The notes beneath the pieces are model-generated. The model was not told where the DNA came from. It searched no databases and saw only the letters and a list, made by a program, of their open reading frames with translations. Positions 31,194 to 55,302 of a stretch of 64,000 nt of DNA are shown piece after piece (within the stretch, counting starts at the first letter, position 1; each line of letters starts with the position of its first letter). The position numbers were made by a program, and so were the translations under genes. Source of the DNA: Candidatus Kapaibacterium sp. (GTDB lineage: Bacteria > Bacteroidota > Ignavibacteria > Kapaibacteriales > UBA2268); contig OY762428.1 of assembly GCA_963665665.1 (NCBI GenBank), forward strand, positions 2,255,007 to 2,319,006. Direction: 5' to 3'.

Positions 31194-32807
31194 TTATTCT
31201 TTTGCATCATCTTCTTTGTTTTTTCCAAAATGGCTGAGTATATCAACGCCTGTTGCATTCTCGATCATTTCGGAAAGTGAGACGACCGATCCCGGGAGCT
31301 GGTTTACAAGCTTGGAAATATTATTTCCGCCATTGTCGCCGTTTCCGCTGTCAATCATTGTTATCTTGTCAATATTAATACCCTTTATTGATGAAGTAAG
31401 GGTATCGACAATCTGCGGAAGCATTTGCAGCATGAATACTTTATCTCCCTTACCGTCCGCACTGAGATATGCGCCTATCATCTGCTCAAGCACCATACGG
31501 CGTGCTTCACCGTCAGCGATAATTGATGCAGCCTCGCCTTTTGCTTCAAGTTCCAGTGCTTCTTTCCTGGCTTTAGCCGGTTCGATAACGTCAGCCTGCA
31601 GGCGTTTCTTCTGGAGGATAATCCTTTCCTCTTCCATTTCCTGCTCGTATTTGGCCTGAGCTTTCTGTCCTGCAACTTCAGCTTCTTTTTCCATGATAAT
31701 TGCTTCTTTTTCAAGCTCGGCTTTCTTCATCCTCAGGTTGTTGCGTTCAGTTTCAACTTCCTGACCGGCAAGTGCTTCAGAAACTTTAACATTTCTGTCC
31801 GAACTGATCTGCGCCTGTTCCACGGCCTGTTTGGATTCTGCTCTGGCCTTTTCGGCTTCTGCATTAGCAAGCGCTTCTGCCGCTTTGGCTTCTGCCTGCT
31901 TGCGTGAATTAGCAATATTAACATTCTGTTGCGACTCAATCTGTGCTGTTTCAATTTCCTGTTTGGCCTTTGCATTTGCTTTCTCAACTTTTTCCTTTGC
32001 AAGTGCGGCAGCTTCCTTGGCGTCGGCTTCTTTCATCGAGTTCTTGATATTAATATTCTGCTGAACTTCAATCTGTGCTGTTTCAATATCCTGCTTGGCT
32101 TTTGCCCTGGCAATCTCGGCTCTTTTCACGCCATCAGCTTCGGCTTCTTCAGCTTCGGCTTTTTTGTCCGCCTCGGCCTTTTTAGCCTGGGCAATTACCT
32201 CGGCAGTTTTCATACGTCCGATAGAATCCAGATAGCCTCTTTCATCGGAAATATTCGTGATTTTCAAAGTGTCAAGTTTCAAACCCAGTTTTTCCAGGTC
32301 GGTATCGGCTTCTTCCATCAGCTTCTGAGCAAATTTCAACCTGTCCTCGTTTACTTCTTCCGGGGTCAGCGAGGCAAGGACTCCGCGAAGGTTACCTTCC
32401 AGGTTGTCCTTGGCTATAGCATGGATCTCTTCCTGGTTCATTGTCAGGAATCTTTCCACGGCATTTCCGAAAATCGGTTCTGTAGCATCAATCTTAATAT
32501 TTGCGATAGCATCCACTACCAGCGGAATACCGCCTTTGGAATATGCATTATGAACAGAGAGTTCAATCGGAATAGTTTCAAGCGACATGCGGGATGCTTT
32601 TTCGAGCAGCGGTATCTTTATGGCTCTCCCGCCCCTGATCATCCTGAATCCGACAATCGAACCGTCAGATAGTTTTCGTTTACGCCCCGATAGTATTATA
32701 ACTTCGTTCGGCTGAGCGATCAGCAGAAGCCTGCTTACTGCTATCATAACTATCAGCAGGGCAGCTGCTGCGATTACAACAAGCACTAGTATTGCACTGT
32801 TTTCCAT
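31194..32807 (-). CDS. flotillin-like SPFH/band-7 protein (YqiK/FloT family)
   Basis: An N-terminal TM helix and SPFH domain are followed by a long Ala/Glu/Lys/Gln coiled coil. The coiled coil carries near-identical roughly 40-aa protein repeats (AKAKQDIETAQIEVQQNINIKNSMKEADAK...), which are also visible as roughly 120-bp tandem DNA repeats. Confidence 0.85.
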   Translation of the reverse strand: MENSAILVLVVIAAAALLIVMIAVSRLLLIAQPNEVIILSGRKRKLSDGSIVGFRMIRGGRAIKIPLLEKASRMSLETIPIELSVHNAYSKGGIPLVVDAIANIKIDATEPIFGNAVERFLTMNQEEIHAIAKDNLEGNLRGVLASLTPEEVNEDRLKFAQKLMEEADTDLEKLGLKLDTLKITNISDERGYLDSIGRMKTAEVIAQAKKAEADKKAEAEEAEADGVKRAEIARAKAKQDIETAQIEVQQNINIKNSMKEADAKEAAALAKEKVEKANAKAKQEIETAQIESQQNVNIANSRKQAEAKAAEALANAEAEKARAESKQAVEQAQISSDRNVKVSEALAGQEVETERNNLRMKKAELEKEAIIMEKEAEVAGQKAQAKYEQEMEEERIILQKKRLQADVIEPAKARKEALELEAKGEAASIIADGEARRMVLEQMIGAYLSADGKGDKVFMLQMLPQIVDTLTSSIKGINIDKITMIDSGNGDNGGNNISKLVNQLPGSVVSLSEMIENATGVDILSHFGKNKEDDAKE

Positions 32808-46769: not shown

Positions 46770-48332
46770 ATGACAAATAATGTTATCAATCTGAAGAAAA
46801 AGATAAAAGATTTTAAAACCGAAGGAATCAAATTTTCCGTATCAGGCAGGGAAATTCTGCCATATTATGATATAATTGATTTTCTAAAAATATATTATCC
46901 GTTTATTAATTTGAAACAGATAGAAAGTTCATTTGGCAGTACATATATACCCTCTGATTTGTATGGCGGAAGGAAGTATAACCCTGAAAAATCATTTACT
47001 GACGGGCATATTGCAAAATTGGCTGAGAATAATATTAACTTATCTTTAACACTTACCAATCATTACTTTTCTCCGGATATTTACGAAAAAAGTAAATATT
47101 TACTTGAGAAATACCATAAAGCCGGCAATTCAGTAATATGTGTAAATGATGAACTTGCAAAACAGATAAGGATTGATTTCCCGAAATATCAGCTCAGGGC
47201 AAGTATTATTAAAAATATAAATACTTTGAAAAAAGTTGAGGAAAATCTGGAAATATATGATTTTATTGTGATACCCATGGATAAAAATGACGATGATGAA
47301 TTTTTGAAAAGCCTGCCGGAAAAGAAAAAAATTATGCTTTTTGCCAATGCATCATGCGCTTATTCATGCCCGACAAGAACCTGCTATAAAGGATTTTCGG
47401 AGGTAAATAGAGGTGGCGATCAGGTAAATCTTTGCTCAAGAAATAAAGTTGACAGATTGAACATGGGGCTTGTATTTTTTGATGTGCTGAAATTCAGGGA
47501 TATGGGATTTGATTATTTTAAACTTGTTCCTTTGAAACAATATAAAACTAATGATGTAATAAAATTTTACAGCGAAAAAAGACTAAAACAAAAAATTAAT
47601 TTTAATGAAAAAAACATGTTTTATTTGTGTTCATTCCCAAAATCCGGGAGGACATGGCTGCGCTTTATACTGGCAAATTATATTAATCTATATTTTAAAA
47701 CCGACGAAAAAATTAACCTTAACAATATGTTTGAATTCATTCCTAATAATATTTACGGAGGGCAAAAAGGTTTTGCCAGATTCAGATATTATAACAGGCC
47801 GGAAATACCACTAATTTTATCTACCCATGAGAAATACAATCCGAATATTTTCAGTGAAAAAAGAATAATATTTTTAAAAAGGAACCCTTTGGATACGATA
47901 GTATCATACTATTTTCATATTAAAAATGATCCGGGATATCGGGGAAATATAAGCGAATTTATAAGAGATAAAAAATTTGGTATCAGGTATCTGAAAAGAT
48001 ACTATAAATTATGGGAAAAAAATCTGAATAATGAAAGTCTTATTATAAGCTATGAGGATATGATAGATGATATTGAATCTGTTATCATCAATGTTTTGAA
48101 TTTTATTAATATTCAGGTTGATAATGAAATATTGAAGGAATCAATTAACAATTCTGATATTAATAATATGAGAAATTCAGAAAATCTGGTTAAAATCCCT
48201 GACATGAATGAAAGTGCCGTCAGGGTAAGAAAAGGAAAGACAAATAATTACATGAATTATTTGTCTGAAGAGGATATTAAATATTGTAATGATATTTTAG
48301 ATGTAAAATTACATAAACTATTGGAAAAATAG
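46770..48332 (+). CDS. two-domain protein: unknown Cys-containing N-terminal domain fused to PAPS-type sulfotransferase
   Basis: The C-terminal half carries the 5'-PSB motif FPKSGRTWLRFIL and the 3'-PB motif LKRNPLDTIVSYYFH. The N-terminal roughly 270 aa (..ANASCAYSCPTRTCYKG..) has no recognisable family. The gene converges on the lasso precursor gene. Confidence 0.65.
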   Translation: MTNNVINLKKKIKDFKTEGIKFSVSGREILPYYDIIDFLKIYYPFINLKQIESSFGSTYIPSDLYGGRKYNPEKSFTDGHIAKLAENNINLSLTLTNHYFSPDIYEKSKYLLEKYHKAGNSVICVNDELAKQIRIDFPKYQLRASIIKNINTLKKVEENLEIYDFIVIPMDKNDDDEFLKSLPEKKKIMLFANASCAYSCPTRTCYKGFSEVNRGGDQVNLCSRNKVDRLNMGLVFFDVLKFRDMGFDYFKLVPLKQYKTNDVIKFYSEKRLKQKINFNEKNMFYLCSFPKSGRTWLRFILANYINLYFKTDEKINLNNMFEFIPNNIYGGQKGFARFRYYNRPEIPLILSTHEKYNPNIFSEKRIIFLKRNPLDTIVSYYFHIKNDPGYRGNISEFIRDKKFGIRYLKRYYKLWEKNLNNESLIISYEDMIDDIESVIINVLNFINIQVDNEILKESINNSDINNMRNSENLVKIPDMNESAVRVRKGKTNNYMNYLSEEDIKYCNDILDVKLHKLLEK

Positions 48333-48344
48333 TTATTATGATAT

Positions 48345-48470
48345 CTAAGAAGTATGATAAGTATCGCTTTCGCCATCAGTTTCAGGTGGTGAAGAAATAT
48401 TTCCATCAGTATCGCTTGAATCAAAATCAATTACCTGTGGCTTTTTCCATTCTTTTTTATTGTCTTTCAT
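48345..48470 (-). CDS. lasso peptide precursor (A) - 41 aa, not in ORF track
   Basis: Manual translation of the minus strand gives MKDNKKEWKKPQVIDFDSSDTD/GNISSPPETDGESDTYHTS. There is a Lys-rich leader with Thr at -2, a core starting with Gly, Glu at core position 8, and a C-terminal ...YHTS. Compare my recollection of the paeninodin precursor, MKKQYSKPSLEVLDVHQTM-AGPGTSTPDAFQPDPDEDVHYDS. The ORF lies 70 bp downstream of the cyclase gene on the same strand. Confidence 0.6.
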   Translation of the reverse strand: MKDNKKEWKKPQVIDFDSSDTDGNISSPPETDGESDTYHTS

Positions 48471-48540
48471 AATCAATTCTTTTTTTTTAAATATATATCA
48501 ACTTAATCTGGATATAATATACTTAATTGTACAGTTAAAT

Positions 48541-50938: not shown

Positions 50939-51220
50939 TCAGGACTTCACATCAATAAGTTTCATTTTTACGAGTTTTTCCAGAAATTCCGTTGTGTCTT
51001 TTTCGCATACTTCCCTGTCGATATTATATTCTTCGAGTAGTTTATTTACCAGGTCGCCAAAGCTTATTTCATTTTCAATTTTTGCCCATATTACTGATCC
51101 AATCTCGTCGAAACCATAGTATTTGCTGGTTTCTACGCTCATCATTACAGTCTGGTTGTCAATCTCGCTGCTGATAAAATCATCTTTCCTGATGATTATT
51201 GTATTGCCTGTTATTTCCAT
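50939..51220 (-). CDS. lasso peptide biosynthesis B1 protein (PqqD-like RiPP recognition element)
   Basis: 93 aa with the PqqD-family pattern ...SKYYGFDEIGSVIWAKIENEISFGDLVNKLLEEYNIDREVCEKDTTEFLEKLVKMKLI. Confidence 0.75.
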   Translation of the reverse strand: MEITGNTIIIRKDDFISSEIDNQTVMMSVETSKYYGFDEIGSVIWAKIENEISFGDLVNKLLEEYNIDREVCEKDTTEFLEKLVKMKLIDVKS

Positions 51221-51251
51221 GATATTTATCTATATGTTAATAAATGATAAA

Positions 51252-51301
51252 ATTCTTTACATAAGGAACGAACTCTGATAAGAAAACACGATTTTCTTTA
51301 C
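51252..51301. repeat. direct repeat copy (32-bp unit AACTCTGATAAGAAAACACGATTTTCTTTACA plus partial unit) downstream of Fic gene
   Basis: One full unit plus the preceding partial unit ttctttaca-taaggaacg are identical to the spacers in the 52383-52496 array. Confidence 0.7.
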
Positions 51302-51313
51302 AAAGAATAAAAA

Positions 51314-52375
51314 CTATCCGATTTTCAATAATTCCATCAATTTTTCATTGACATAATAATTCCCTGTGCCAAGCCGGTGTTTTGTCAGCAGGCCGTCATT
51401 TGCCATCTCGTTTAAATATTTTGCGGCGGTTATTCTTGATACTCCTAGATCTGTTTCAAGGAATTCAATTTTCGTATAAGGATGTTTGAATAAATTGTTC
51501 AGTAAATCCTGGCTGTAGAATTTATATTTTGAACGTATAATATTTTTATATTCAAATATCAATTCCCGGATATTTTTTATTAATACTATTGTTTCCAGGG
51601 AAGTTTGTTCAACACATTCAAGGATATAAATCAGCCAGTTTTCAAAAATATTGCTTTGCCTGACATCCTGTAACAGATTGTAATAATGTTCTTTGTTTAA
51701 TATAATATATCTGCTATGGTACAAGATCGGTAATTTTAATAGGTCTTTCAGAACAAGATATAACACATTCAATATTCTTCCTGTTCTGCCATTTCCATCA
51801 TAAAACGGATGAATGCTTTCGAATTGATAATGTATTATTGCCATTTTTACCAAAGGATCCAAATCAGAAATCGAATCGTCATTGATGAAGAGTTCAAGAT
51901 TTGACATAAGCTCAAGAATTTCATTCGGATCCTGGGGCGGAGTATAAACTATGTCTCCACTTGTATCATTTTTCAGCACAGTTCCCGGTACTTTCCTGAA
52001 ACCGGCAGAATTTTTTTCAAGTTCCTCCTGAATTTCAAGAATGGTATTTCTTGTTATCATCCCGCTTTCAGAAACCAGGGCAAAACCTTTCTTAAGCGCC
52101 GAACCGTAGTTTTGAACTTCTTTTGCGTTAAGGGAATCAAAACCGTCAAGATTCAGTTCGGATTTATACAGGTCATCGTGTGTTGTGATGATATTTTCTA
52201 TTGCCGAACTGTCTTTTGCTTCCTGAAGCCCCAGAGTATTTATTAAAATATTCTCATTGGGAATTGTTGTTGAAATACCTTTCAATTCGGCGAGCGCTCT
52301 GTGAGCAGAAGAAAGTTTTTTGAGAACTTTTACAGTCTCCAGTTCTACTTTATTATATGGTAATTTCTGTATCAT
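51314..52375 (-). CDS. Fic/Doc family protein (Fic_N + Fic core + C-terminal winged-helix)
   Basis: Fic motif HPFYDGNGRTGR and N-terminal Fic_N pattern (MIQKLPYNKVELETVKVLKKLSSAHRALAELKG). The first 16 codons of the track ORF start at TTG and are simply a translation of the upstream repeat array, so the start was moved to the ATG at 52375. Confidence 0.85.
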   Translation of the reverse strand: MIQKLPYNKVELETVKVLKKLSSAHRALAELKGISTTIPNENILINTLGLQEAKDSSAIENIITTHDDLYKSELNLDGFDSLNAKEVQNYGSALKKGFALVSESGMITRNTILEIQEELEKNSAGFRKVPGTVLKNDTSGDIVYTPPQDPNEILELMSNLELFINDDSISDLDPLVKMAIIHYQFESIHPFYDGNGRTGRILNVLYLVLKDLLKLPILYHSRYIILNKEHYYNLLQDVRQSNIFENWLIYILECVEQTSLETIVLIKNIRELIFEYKNIIRSKYKFYSQDLLNNLFKHPYTKIEFLETDLGVSRITAAKYLNEMANDGLLTKHRLGTGNYYVNEKLMELLKIG

Positions 52376-52382
52376 AATTTCA

Positions 52383-52496
52383 AACTCTGATAAGAAAACA
52401 CGATTTTCTTTACAAAGATACAAAACTCTGATAAGAAAACACGATTTTCTTTACATAAGGAACGAACTCTGATAAGAAAACACGATTTTCTTTACA
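52383..52496. repeat. three tandem direct copies of 32-bp unit AACTCTGATAAGAAAACACGATTTTCTTTACA with 9-bp spacers
   Basis: Exact copies at 52383-52414, 52424-52455 and 52465-52496. Each contains the dyad AGAAAA-n5-TTTTCT. The array lies immediately upstream of the Fic gene, between it and the sulfotransferase gene. Confidence 0.8.
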
Positions 52497-52499
52497 TAG

Positions 52500-53369
52500 T
52501 TAAACCAGAATATCTCCATTTTCAGAAAGGTATCCATATTTTTTCATTATTTCCGAATGGTTTGCGATTATTGATTCAACCATAGCATCGTTCAGCTGAT
52601 TTCGCCAGGCGCCCTTTTTGCCTTTGCGGAAGAAGGATTCGGATTTTGGATTCTTTTCCTTAAAGCCGTGCTCTTTTTCCATTTCTTTTAATTTGTCAAA
52701 TGTGCTTAGTCCAACTGCTTTTGAAATTTGCCCGTGCGTGTAATCGAAATCTGTAAATTCCAAAGCCCGTGTGAATTCTTTTACAGGATCGTCCTTCATA
52801 TCTTCATATCTCAAAATAATAACCGGAATTTTATCCTGCTCAGTCCAGCTTCTGATATGCAGGCTCCATGACAGGAGTTTTTGCCTAAGCTGGTTATGAA
52901 GAGTACCGTCGTTGGTACAAAAAGCGAAATTCTCGTTGTTCATATCCAGGATACTTTTATGAATCGGTTTATTTGAATGATGTGCAAAGGAACAGGCTAC
53001 ATCAAAAGGATTCCTTATAATATATACAGCTGAATGGCTAATTTCTTCCGGGAACATTGGCCGCCCGTCAGGTAGAAGTGTATAAGCGTCATGCGTTTTC
53101 AGGAATCGTTTGTCTTCTTCAAATTCATCGGCAAGGTGTTTGTATATATCCGGCCTTGCCAGGTCAATCTCATCCATTGTCAGATCGGAAGCGGCAGTTC
53201 CGGCCAGATCGTCAAATGTATCCCGGCTGCTGGAAATAGGGCCTCCAGTCAGGTTATTTATATCTGCCGGTTCAGAATAACCCATTACAAGATTTGTGAA
53301 AAATACTCTGAACCATGTGTTACCTGATTTTGGGTAGGAGGCAAGCCAGATTATTTTTTTATTTTCCAC
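52500..53369 (-). CDS. PAPS-dependent sulfotransferase
   Basis: 5'-PSB motif SYPKSGNTWFRVFF and 3'-PB motif IIRNPFDVACSFAHH; 289 aa. It apparently starts at GTG and overlaps the kinase gene stop. Confidence 0.8.
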   Translation of the reverse strand: MENKKIIWLASYPKSGNTWFRVFFTNLVMGYSEPADINNLTGGPISSSRDTFDDLAGTAASDLTMDEIDLARPDIYKHLADEFEEDKRFLKTHDAYTLLPDGRPMFPEEISHSAVYIIRNPFDVACSFAHHSNKPIHKSILDMNNENFAFCTNDGTLHNQLRQKLLSWSLHIRSWTEQDKIPVIILRYEDMKDDPVKEFTRALEFTDFDYTHGQISKAVGLSTFDKLKEMEKEHGFKEKNPKSESFFRKGKKGAWRNQLNDAMVESIIANHSEIMKKYGYLSENGDILV

Positions 53370-54273
53370 TATTAGCCTCCAAATCTTTTAGTATTGCGTC
53401 AACAATCATTGCAGGATCCGATTTCATCCTAATCCTGTTAAGTTTTCGTATAAAGATATCTTTGGAGTTTGCTATTTGTGTTAAAAAGATAAAATGTTTG
53501 TCCGGCTGTCCGGTTCTTTGAACAAATCTTTTACGGTATGTTGAATTTCTTAGAAATTTGATTTTCTTAATTGAATCAATTTCTGATATTTCAATATCTT
53601 CAAAAGGCCCCGGCTTTATAAAATATATTCCCATTACCGGCCTTGATTTTTCAATATCGTGTATTGATATTGGAATTCTGAATTTTTCCTGTTCTTCTCT
53701 TATCTTTTCGATATTTGAATAATCTGTTTTCAGCATTTTCAGGCTGTCATTCCAAAGTTTAATCTCTGAATGTCCGGGAATTATTGATATAATCCCATCG
53801 TCGTCTATAGTTAATAATGAAGTATCGTCACAAAGCAGGCCGTATCCTCTTTTTACAAATTCAGCGGCAATGGTGGATTTTCCGGCGCCTGATTTCCCTG
53901 AGAAAAGTAATGCCCTGCCATCGATTTCCACTGCGCTGGCATGGAGGGCGAATATTCCGCGCTGATGCGCCAGGGCCCCGAGAACTGATCCGAAAAGGAA
54001 TACTTTTAACTCGGATTCCGAAGTATCGGGATTAAGGTCAACAGTAATAGTCCTGCCGTCTTCAACAAGGAATCTTCCCACGCTTTCTAAGTTAAATAGA
54101 AATTTGCCCGGGGCTGCGGAATATAAAGGATAGACCTGTGCATTTCCGTTCAATTTTTCAGGTACGTCACCTTTGCGGATTATAACATCGCTTTCTTTTT
54201 CTGTTTCCGGAAGTCCGGAAAACTCGAATTCCGAGTCAAATACAAAACCGTATGCGTAATATTTTTTTCTCAT
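53359..54273 (-). CDS. HPr kinase/phosphorylase C-terminal-domain-like kinase (lasso peptide kinase candidate)
   Basis: P-loop GKSGAGKSTIAAEF followed by LLCDDTSLL, as in the HprK_C fold. It is co-located with the lasso B1/B2/C genes, as in paeninodin-type clusters. Confidence 0.75.
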   Translation of the reverse strand: MRKKYYAYGFVFDSEFEFSGLPETEKESDVIIRKGDVPEKLNGNAQVYPLYSAAPGKFLFNLESVGRFLVEDGRTITVDLNPDTSESELKVFLFGSVLGALAHQRGIFALHASAVEIDGRALLFSGKSGAGKSTIAAEFVKRGYGLLCDDTSLLTIDDDGIISIIPGHSEIKLWNDSLKMLKTDYSNIEKIREEQEKFRIPISIHDIEKSRPVMGIYFIKPGPFEDIEISEIDSIKKIKFLRNSTYRKRFVQRTGQPDKHFIFLTQIANSKDIFIRKLNRIRMKSDPAMIVDAILKDLEANSGK

Positions 54274-54279
54274 AGTATA

Positions 54280-55302
54280 TTATTTGGTTTTAATTTTTAA
54301 ATAATCAAAAACTATATAAAATGGAATTAAAGGATAATTTAGGTATCTGAATATTCCGGGAAATTTAATTTTTGATATATATGATATAGAATAAAAAGAT
54401 CCAAAAAATATTTTCAATTTAAAAAAAATGGATCTTTTCAATTTCATTTTATAAATAATAGAATCAACAATACTATTAAAAGTCTTGATATCATAGGGAA
54501 TCAGTATTCTTTTTACACAGAAATCACTTAATTTTCCATGAAACTCTATATTATCATTCAACTTAATTTTGTGATTATAAATATACGATAAAAGATTTAA
54601 TAAAGGGAAGTAAAGGCGTTCTAAATGATATCTTTCCGCAAGTTTCCCTGCTGCAAAAAACAAATCAGGACGATTCATGTATATAAAATGTATATCCCGA
54701 AGCCAAAATAGACGATTCCAGAAATGTATTCCTCCATGAATAATCAAAAAAAGAATATTTTCTGTTGATAAGGAGCTATAATCTACATAAATTTTAGATA
54801 GGTCATATTCAGTGTTAACATTTTTGGGAATCCAATTATGTTTAAATAATTTCCAATGAAGTTCAATTAAAATATTGGTTTTTGAACTAACAAATTTCAT
54901 CTGATTATTTCTGCGAAATAATTCATTAAAATTCTCTTTGTTGTAATCACTATAATCCTTATAAATTTTAATATTGTTCTCAGTTAAAACTTGTATAGCT
55001 TTATTGATATTTTTAAATTCAATCAGGATATCAATATCTCTGCTCATCCTATCCGCCGGATCTGAGTATAGAAGCCCGGTTATTCCCGGCCCTTTCAGGT
55101 TTCTGAATTTAATTCCATTAATTTCAAGAATTTTGGAAATTCGTTTCAATTCAGTATTGATAACAAGCATTTTCCGGGTTTCTATTTTAATCAGGCTATC
55201 TATTTGTGTCAATATTGACTCGCTGAGATACGAACTATATAATTTCAATTTTCTAAGTGCAGGAAGAAGCAGGCGATGCCTTCTGCCAAGCTTTACAAAC
55301 AT
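54280..55302 (-). CDS. nucleotidyltransferase family protein (PF14907-like)
   Basis: 340 aa; ...GLLYSDPADRMSRDIDILIEF is consistent with a polymerase-beta-like NTase motif. It is the first gene of the minus-strand cluster. The ORF stays open upstream of the ATG to about 55470, so the true start is uncertain. Confidence 0.55.
   Translation of the reverse strand: MFVKLGRRHRLLLPALRKLKLYSSYLSESILTQIDSLIKIETRKMLVINTELKRISKILEINGIKFRNLKGPGITGLLYSDPADRMSRDIDILIEFKNINKAIQVLTENNIKIYKDYSDYNKENFNELFRRNNQMKFVSSKTNILIELHWKLFKHNWIPKNVNTEYDLSKIYVDYSSLSTENILFLIIHGGIHFWNRLFWLRDIHFIYMNRPDLFFAAGKLAERYHLERLYFPLLNLLSYIYNHKIKLNDNIEFHGKLSDFCVKRILIPYDIKTFNSIVDSIIYKMKLKRSIFFKLKIFFGSFYSISYISKIKFPGIFRYLNYPLIPFYIVFDYLKIKTK

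Follow-up and report, generated by a model that had tools for sequence, protein, structure and literature searches.

We have found that a 32-nt repeat, which brackets a Fic gene inside a lasso cluster of Candidatus Kapaibacterium sp., is probably the operator of that gene's own product, a self-regulated Fic enzyme of the SoFic type. The repeat lies in a 64,000-nt stretch of contig OY762428.1 (positions 2,255,007 to 2,319,006), hereafter the window, taken from a source genome of 5.46 Mb; the repeat counts given below refer to the window. The sequence of the units and analogy with characterized relatives suggest that Fic binds them and represses its own transcription. To our knowledge, autoregulation by a Fic protein bearing a helix-turn-helix of the winged type (wHTH) has been described for CccR and SoFic alone, the latter in a 2026 preprint. 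An autoregulated wHTH-Fic is a known kind of system; what is new is the phased, multi-operator layout shared by a whole family, its cassette-borne lifestyle, and a lineage-specific array, homogenized and duplicated, inside a cluster for a ribosomally synthesized and post-translationally modified peptide (RiPP). The units offer a concrete candidate operator for the SoFic-like family: inverted 7-nt half-sites separated by 13 nt (7-N13-7), in two to three copies phased at 40-42 bp. Gene and leader appear to spread across phyla as one module, largely in the form of integron-type cassettes.

The 32-nt unit, AACTCTGATAAGAAAACACGATTTTCTTTACA, occurs four times in the window as exact copies, where none is expected by chance (Table 1). 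Because Fic is encoded on the minus strand, three of these copies form an array upstream of the gene, and a single exact copy lies downstream, between Fic and the lasso gene B1. A first-pass annotation of this DNA had described three exact tandem copies with 9-bp spacers ahead of Fic, and an exact-match search bears this out. The spacers between the upstream units are taaggaacg and aagatacaa, and Tandem Repeats Finder reports 52381-52498 as a 41-nt period with 2.9 copies. The dyad AGAAAA-n5-TTTTCT that had been seen in each unit is indeed present in all exact units, and extends to AAGAAAA-N5-TTTTCTT. The fourth, downstream copy was likewise located as described, but the "partial unit" placed next to it (51253-51261) was not a fragment: it is the first 9 nt of a full-length, diverged fifth unit. 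In the orientation of Fic this fifth unit reads TGTAAAGAATTTTATCATTTATTAACA; it keeps both half-sites, lies 41 bp from the exact downstream copy (U0), and ends 14 nt from the ATG of B1. A clustered regularly interspaced short palindromic repeats (CRISPR) array was considered and rejected, as the spacers are 9 nt long with one of them recurring, rather than unique and of ~26-72 nt.

Each unit contains a 27-bp core made of the inverted half-sites TGTAAAG and CTTATCA, the centers of which are 20 bp apart. The upstream cores repeat every 41 bp, or about four helical turns, which would place them on one face of the DNA, and all three lie within 125 nt of the Fic ATG. The proximal core (U1) ends 12 nt from this ATG, and the distal unit (U3), written in the orientation of Fic, is TGTAAAGAAAATCGTGTTTTCTTATCA followed by GAGTT.

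The upstream array is a conserved leader of the gene. We collected 80 metagenome loci for a comparison of homolog leaders; motif hits were tallied over 83 loci, full leaders were available in 72, and the region downstream of Fic was checked in 79. The homolog leader spans ~135 nt and consists of CGTTAGCCAAAA, a first unit (a), 14 nt, a second unit (b), a spacer ending in TAnCTTTG, a third unit (c) and ~13 nt before the ATG. Over the 83 loci, hits to the unit motif fall at about -40 from the ATG in 60 loci, at about -80 in 60 or more, and at about -120 in 25 or more. The consensus form of the homolog unit is TGTAAAG-N13-CTTWWCA, and its period is 40-43 bp, mostly 41, in 72 of the 72 complete leaders. 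The three upstream units of the window align column for column with homolog units a, b and c and stand equally far from the ATG; their sequence is nearest to the consensus of unit b, TGtaAAGAaAAtt.gATTtTcTTATCA. They are 100% identical to one another over 32 nt, versus 53-62% (maximum 81%) among units a, b and c of the homologs. The leader keeps its position relative to the gene whatever the context, be it an integron array, a plasmid or a chromosome. Units downstream of Fic were found in none of the 79 homologs checked, and the window arrangement stands alone in this respect.

The same leader accounts for a recurrent annotation error. As the first-pass annotation had noticed, an open reading frame (ORF) with a TTG start, 51314-52423, translates the proximal unit of the window, reading it as MYLCKENRVFLSEFEI; the real start is the ATG, as shown by homologs of 352-353 aa and by a 353-aa entry in a public collection. 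Many of the gene calls in homologs likewise start too far upstream and begin with LCKENLIFL... or ICKDNLIFLSKE, which is translated unit; operators are thus annotated as protein of the form LCKENxxFL.... Generic repeat finders run at three homolog loci detected no diverged units, and it was the over-extended N-termini that exposed them.

Conservation within the units points to a protein that binds as a dimer. The half-sites are near-invariant in homologs (TGTAAAG 85-100%, TTATCA/TTTACA 90-100%), while the 13-nt centers and the spacers vary. Mirrored positions show a single type of Watson-Crick pair, with no covariation inside the units, and the inner positions of units a and c are mostly non-complementary (pairing 0.2-0.4 over 55-60 distinct homolog units). 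Such conservation of an inverted repeat at the sequence level, with no alternative pairs, is what a protein that binds DNA as a dimer would leave, and not a hairpin. More distant relatives of Fic on plasmids are preceded by similar palindromes: TGTATAG-N13-CTATACG and TATATAG-N13-TTATACA, 40 bp apart, in Psychrobacter; TGTAAAG-N13-CTTTACA in Hymenobacter; another 7-N13-7 palindrome in Pseudanabaena; and TGCATAG-N14-CTATGCA, twice, on a GC-rich Azotobacter plasmid. Half-sites drift by lineage, and geometry and phasing stay, as would be expected if regulator and operator co-evolve.

On the Azotobacter salinestris plasmid (NZ_CP045301.1, 15023-17203; locus L095), the Fic relative and its two-unit leader sit between the methyltransferase and specificity-subunit genes of a type I restriction-modification system. 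Pairs of units also occur at three viral loci, L089:4418-4465 and L090:6273-6320 (IMG/VR contigs) and L091:1688-1735, in the form TGTAAAG-N13-CTTATCA followed by TGTAAAG... at a 41-bp period. No Fic relative was detectable within these loci, and by a rough estimate ~0.3 such hits would be expected by chance; the pairs may be the operator of some wHTH protein related to Fic, or they may have arisen by chance. A search of the viral collection for relatives of the window Fic found none.

The gene itself encodes a 353-aa protein with Fic_N, Fic (E value 5e-19) and SoFic-like_C wHTH (E value 7e-18) domains in Pfam, all above curated cut-offs, so that the C-terminal winged helix reported from the sequence is confirmed. 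It matches the SoFic structures PDB 3eqx and 9tc4 with E ~1e-75 over residues 12-350. The catalytic motif HxFx(D/E)GNGRxxR is present as HPFYDGNGRTGR, and the inhibitory motif (S/T)xxxE(G/N) as SSAIEN in the N-terminal region, where it is invariant across homologs. We classify the protein as a SoFic-like class II AMP-transferase with a wHTH, its activity being predicted from these motifs. EF-Tu is the AMPylation target of SoFic. More than 8000 homologs were found, the best of them 73-77% identical and distributed over Bacteroidota, Ignavibacteria, Chlorobi, Marinimicrobia and KSB1.

Two characterized Fic proteins resemble this system, and the suggestion that the array is an operator bound by the Fic HTH is consistent both with the comparative data and with the published work on them. 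SoFic of Shewanella oneidensis (SO_4266, MloA) has the same domain architecture and full-length similarity to the window Fic. Specific binding to the promoter DNA of its own gene is seen with dimeric SoFic and not with a monomeric mutant, and the binding was narrowed to a 100-bp fragment (bioRxiv 10.64898/2026.07.09.737422). In our own reading, the 300-bp "pDNA" upstream of mloA listed in Table S2 of that preprint (bioRxiv 10.64898/2026.07.09.737422) contains TGTATAG-N13-CTATACA twice, 40 bp apart, as well as TGTAAAC-N7-CTTTACA in the proximal fragment, F1. The first of the two 27-bp N13 palindromes lies inside fragment F3 and the second is cut at the F3/F2 boundary; cut in this way, the distal sites may have escaped detection when binding was assayed. 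The preprint leaves the SoFic operator undefined, whereas the window family has three units directly abutting the start codon, and in the window these units are mutually identical with two more past the gene. CccR of Yersinia pseudotuberculosis (YPK_0951) represses its own gene through inverted repeats over the -35 and -10 elements, requires dimerization to do so, and also regulates genes besides its own (PMC9755527). The likeness thus extends from the Fic domain with a C-terminal HTH to negative autoregulation by a dimer on inverted repeats overlapping a promoter. However, CccR is a type VI secretion system effector, distant in sequence from the window Fic family, and has a single operator with 10-bp half-sites 26 bp apart, in place of three 7-N13-7 operators at a 41-bp period. 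Its DNA-binding helices are ~70 Å apart (PMC9755527), a distance to which we liken the 68 Å between half-site centers in the units (20 bp x 3.4 Å).

Outside the Fic proteins with a wHTH, phd/doc and other type II toxin-antitoxin operons offer a parallel, in that repression at palindromic operators, which overlap the promoter of the gene itself, holds down the level of a potentially toxic enzyme. The Fido fold is common to Fic and Doc. The Fic locus differs in lacking a separate antitoxin or repressor, as the inhibitory helix and the DNA-binding domain both belong to the Fic polypeptide.

We propose that the three phased cores would be the ancestral leader of the gene, with a Bacteroidota-type promoter embedded in it. 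Fic dimers, joined via the N-terminal helix, would put one wHTH on each half-site and fill the three operators cooperatively, repressing fic transcription and keeping a potentially toxic enzyme scarce. Leader and gene would move horizontally as a module, mostly as an integron-type cassette with attC-like edges, and in this genome an attC-less copy has entered the lasso operon at the short gap that separates the sulfotransferase gene from B1. The three operators have become identical within this lineage, through gene conversion or slippage, and the downstream segment, with its exact and diverged units, would most simply be a by-product of insertion or a local duplication. As for the promoter, TATCTTTG, which has the form TAnnTTTG and is similar to the -7 element of Bacteroidota, straddles the spacer and the start of U1. 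Homolog leaders keep TA(a/t)CTTTG at this place, with TTTG 20 nt upstream in the center of unit b, and at the level of pattern TATCTTTG is a candidate -7 element of the Fic promoter.

Several points weigh against this interpretation. The promoter was assigned by pattern matches, TAnnTTTG occurs at chance level across the window, and the window has a degenerate CGTG, not TTTG, at the -33 position. Binding of Fic to the window unit is something we infer from the sequence and from its relatives. SoFic bound most strongly to the 100 bp closest to the start codon (bioRxiv 10.64898/2026.07.09.737422), and that proximal fragment holds the N7 variant, not the two upstream N13 units; the operator of CccR is also spaced differently (N26). 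The identity of the four exact units shows recent conversion, which in itself is silent on function. The scan for units covered 64 kb of the 5.46-Mb genome.

The Fic gene was correctly recognized as inserted inside the lasso cluster. On the minus strand, Pfam domains give the order NTP_transf_5, HPr-kinase-like, sulfotransferase, Fic, PqqD/B1, transglutaminase/B2, Asn-synthase/C and a 43-aa precursor. The closest lasso cyclases are 52-55% identical to that of the window, and three related clusters were compared (L004, L005 and L006/L007). In all three, a sulfotransferase of 285-289 aa is followed directly by B1 across a gap of 18-21 bp, without Fic; the orthologous clusters are devoid of the gene, not of the repeats alone. 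The window sulfotransferase and that of L006 have the same end, ...ILV*, and the start of B1 is the homologous Met. This conserved end and start mean that the whole block of ~1.26 kb, repeats included, is extra DNA. The AACT common to both junctions of the block is part of the unit itself. Fic is therefore a passenger that divides the lasso tailoring genes from the core genes B1-B2-C-A. It is the only ORF in the insert, which holds no recombinase. No intrinsic terminator was found between Fic and B1, and a sigma-70 scan was likewise uninformative; a tRNA scan was empty, leaving no tRNA-type attachment site, and an Rfam scan gave no match. A search for lasso-cyclase relatives in the genome-contig collection found none.

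A second assembly carries the same arrangement. In L088 (ENA ERZ21869602 ctg91415l), a noisy long-read contig of a closely related strain, the insertion, units and junctions are the same, and the layout in an independent assembly indicates that the array is real and inherited and not an assembly artefact. The fifth unit is identical in sequence there, and the distal upstream copy, at the position of U3, differs from the window at 3 positions. Fic (in pieces of 105 + 197 aa), the sulfotransferase and the cyclase are among many genes that are interrupted in L088, most likely through long-read frameshift error rather than pseudogenization.

The edges of the homologs suggest how the module moves. 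In flanks of 3-5 kb that were examined for cassette features, the stop codon of Fic is followed by ...CACTTTGGCTAAC, the reverse complement of GTTAGCCAAA at the 5' edge of the leader, and then by a ~130-nt imperfect palindrome ending in ...CCGTT. The cassette has a 5' end, TTAGCCAAA, complementary to the sequence with which its attC-like site starts. The length of fourteen such elements is 129-136 nt, mostly 129-132 nt; they start with GGCTAAC, end with GTT, and show compensatory changes in 9 of 12 predicted pairs; GGCTAAY occurs within 60 nt past the Fic stop in 41 of 79 homologs. A covariance model built from the homolog elements found 78 sites in the homolog loci, all co-oriented with Fic and at cassette-like spacing. 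The elements thus resemble attC sites, and the homologs have the look of integron-type cassettes. Like cassettes that carry their own promoter, such as the toxin-antitoxin cassettes of chromosomal integrons, each cassette brings its own leader, and homologs lie in arrays of co-oriented ~130-nt attC-like sites; the homolog GGCTAAC/GTTAGCC is, however, one position off the textbook RYYYAAC/GTTRRRY. The window copy differs in having no attC and lying outside any array: the model had no hit in either the window or L088, and no GGCTAAC/GTTAGCC adjoins the window Fic. It is an attC-less derivative. IntI-mediated insertion at a secondary site was rejected as unlikely, since it would leave an attC downstream of Fic. 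CTTTG is common to the attC start and to the junction of spacer and unit just past the window Fic stop.

Arrays of this kind were also seen as such. In Ca. Sulfidibacterium hydrothermale (CP083760.1, 1949300-1960358; locus L002), 12 attC-like sites lie in 11 kb, 0.5-1.3 kb apart, with the Fic cassette among small genes that include PemK and PRTase-CE. Four minus-strand ORFs called there have an equal length of 75 aa; three of these overlie attC-like sites and are unlikely to be real genes. Where the array ends there is also an RVT_1 gene, possibly that of a group IIC-attC intron. Co-oriented arrays of ~130-nt attC-like sites also occur in L050, L062, L068 and L070.

The other way in which the first-pass annotation had read the layout, as a mobile cassette delimited by the repeats, did not hold. 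If the flanking repeats were recombination ends, a small element would excise and integrate through them, and an exact 50-nt direct repeat does bracket Fic, in a block that is an insertion relative to related clusters. The native spacer of L006 (TAAACTTGTTAAAGGAATAAT... / ACTTGTTAAAGGAA...) resembles the start of a unit, and were a circular copy to integrate by one crossover of the Campbell type, at the microhomology TGTAAAGAA, this would yield the observed 50-nt duplication and give exactly this layout. Yet the upstream array is a leader of fixed position in every context (72 loci), none of the 79 homologs has a downstream unit, the mobile edges of the homologs are attC-like sites, the insert lacks a recombinase and the junctions are the same in two strains, all of which makes repeat-mediated mobility improbable. 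Nor does the block fit a transposable cassette or miniature inverted-repeat transposable element (MITE), with repeats at both ends in 0 of 79 homologs and Fic as the sole ORF in the insert. That the unit is a generic interspersed repeat, similar to a repetitive extragenic palindrome (REP) or a MITE, which happens to surround Fic, is very improbable: it is short, near-palindromic, AT-rich and present in several copies, but no further copies occur in the window or in 20 kb of L088, the distance of the units to the start codon of Fic is constant in all homologs, and the exact 32-mer (genome contigs) and 26-nt core (metagenome and viral sequences) had no match in collections that do not include the source genome. 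We consider it very unlikely, too, that the units act as RNA or single-strand hairpins, whether for attenuation, processing or termination between the tailoring genes, Fic and B1. A 7-bp A/T-rich stem, AAGAAAA-N5-TTTTCTT, is possible in each unit of the window, and read-through transcripts would contain the units; against this stand the frequent non-complementary inner positions and the lack of alternative Watson-Crick pairs at any position of the homolog units, the absence of a terminator-like site and the lack of an Rfam match. Binding by a host factor instead of Fic, or a role of the units as promoter elements or elements of the upstream-promoter (UP) type, receives somewhat more credit from us and is still rather improbable. 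TAnnTTTG and TTTG boxes resembling promoter elements are embedded in the leader, and AT-rich phased DNA can act as UP elements or nucleoid-protein sites. With only one gene in the cassette, however, a cis element conserved across phyla must be paired with Fic or else with some universal host factor, and the unit is kept with the gene across Bacteroidota, Ignavibacteria, Chlorobi, Marinimicrobia, KSB1 and Gammaproteobacteria, which lack common promoter types. In GC-rich Azotobacter the half-sites become TGCATAG with the geometry kept, the inverted symmetry points to a specific dimeric binder, and SoFic and CccR bind their own promoters; for a single-gene mobile unit the conserved partner would most simply be Fic, through its wHTH.

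A further possibility concerns the downstream pair and is compatible with operator function of the upstream array. The two units past Fic may themselves be functional operators, through which Fic gates B1-B2-C-A, or the two arrays may loop the intervening 1.1 kb and tighten the repression of Fic. This is on the unlikely side. Points in its favor are that the 41-bp phase is kept, the two units occupy the start region of B1 as units b and c do that of Fic, with 14 nt to the B1 ATG against 12-13 nt to the Fic ATG, the diverged unit retains both half-sites, no intrinsic terminator separates Fic from B1, CccR controls genes other than its own, and the arrangement is kept in the second strain. The pair is, however, unique to the lineage (0 of 79 homologs), one of its units is exact and hence a recent copy, the downstream units have no boxes resembling the -7 and -33 elements, and the two strains are too close for a shared layout to show selection. 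Distinctly less probable is the fuller version, in which a cassette-derived, self-repressing Fic has been wired into the RiPP operon, and its occupancy, possibly also its AMPylation or oligomeric state, gates B1-B2-C-A or loops the DNA. If true, nature would here have recruited a mobile toxin-regulator to switch a natural-product cluster. The pair of units in front of B1 marks the place where expression of the cluster may have become dependent on its passenger. The coordinates of these features are given in Table 1.

Table 1. Repeat units, Fic gene and neighboring features in the window (positions are those of the window).
Feature	Position	Strand	Basis or remark
Upstream unit U3, distal, family position a	52465..52496 (core 52470-52496)	-	Exact copy; core fits TGWWAAG-N13-CTTWWCA; aligns with homolog unit a
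Upstream unit U2, family position b	52424..52455 (core 52429-52455)	-	Exact copy; pattern match; homolog alignment
Upstream unit U1, proximal, family position c	52383..52414 (core 52388-52414)	-	Exact copy; pattern match; homolog alignment
Candidate -7 box TATCTTTG, TAnnTTTG	52413..52420	-	Pattern match
Fic gene, 353 aa, class II SoFic type	51314..52375 (ATG at 52375, stop 51314-51316)	-	Pfam, structure matches, homologs
Downstream unit U0	51271..51302 (core 51276-51302)	-	Exact copy; starts 11 nt past Fic stop codon
Fifth unit, full-length, diverged	51235..51261	-	1 mismatch to TGWWAAG-N13-CTTWWCA (half-site pattern search)
50-nt exact direct repeat bracketing Fic, left copy	51253..51302	.	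Flank comparison
50-nt exact direct repeat bracketing Fic, right copy	52447..52496	.	Flank comparison
Whole inserted block, five units and Fic	51235..52496	-	Synteny with related clusters
Sulfotransferase tailoring gene, directly upstream of insertion	52500..53369	-	Stop codon 3 nt from U3
Lasso B1 (PqqD-like), first gene past insertion	50939..51220	-	B2, C and the 43-aa precursor come next

Some further observations were made on the lasso cluster and its surroundings. The candidate 43-aa precursor, MIMKDNKKEWKKPQVIDFDSSDTDGNISSPPETDGESDTYHTS, is encoded at 48345-48476 on the minus strand, downstream of the cyclase, and has a C-terminal Ser. This residue would fit modification by the product of the HPr-kinase-like gene. 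A divergent 520-aa sulfotransferase fusion lies at 46770-48332 on the plus strand, and its counterpart in L004 is 525 aa. In related clusters an ATP-binding cassette (ABC) transporter is found between the NTP_transf_5 and HPr-kinase-like (ScmC) genes (L004:4644-8407, L006:122-2750); the window cluster (53359-55302) is without it. A HicA-toxin gene and small ORFs lie directly upstream of the related lasso cluster in L004 (4113-4536), and toxin-type passengers may be recurrent near these clusters. Elsewhere in the window, a 132-nt tandem repeat (31915-32165; 1.9 copies, 73% matches) lies within a 537-aa ORF on the minus strand (31194-32807).

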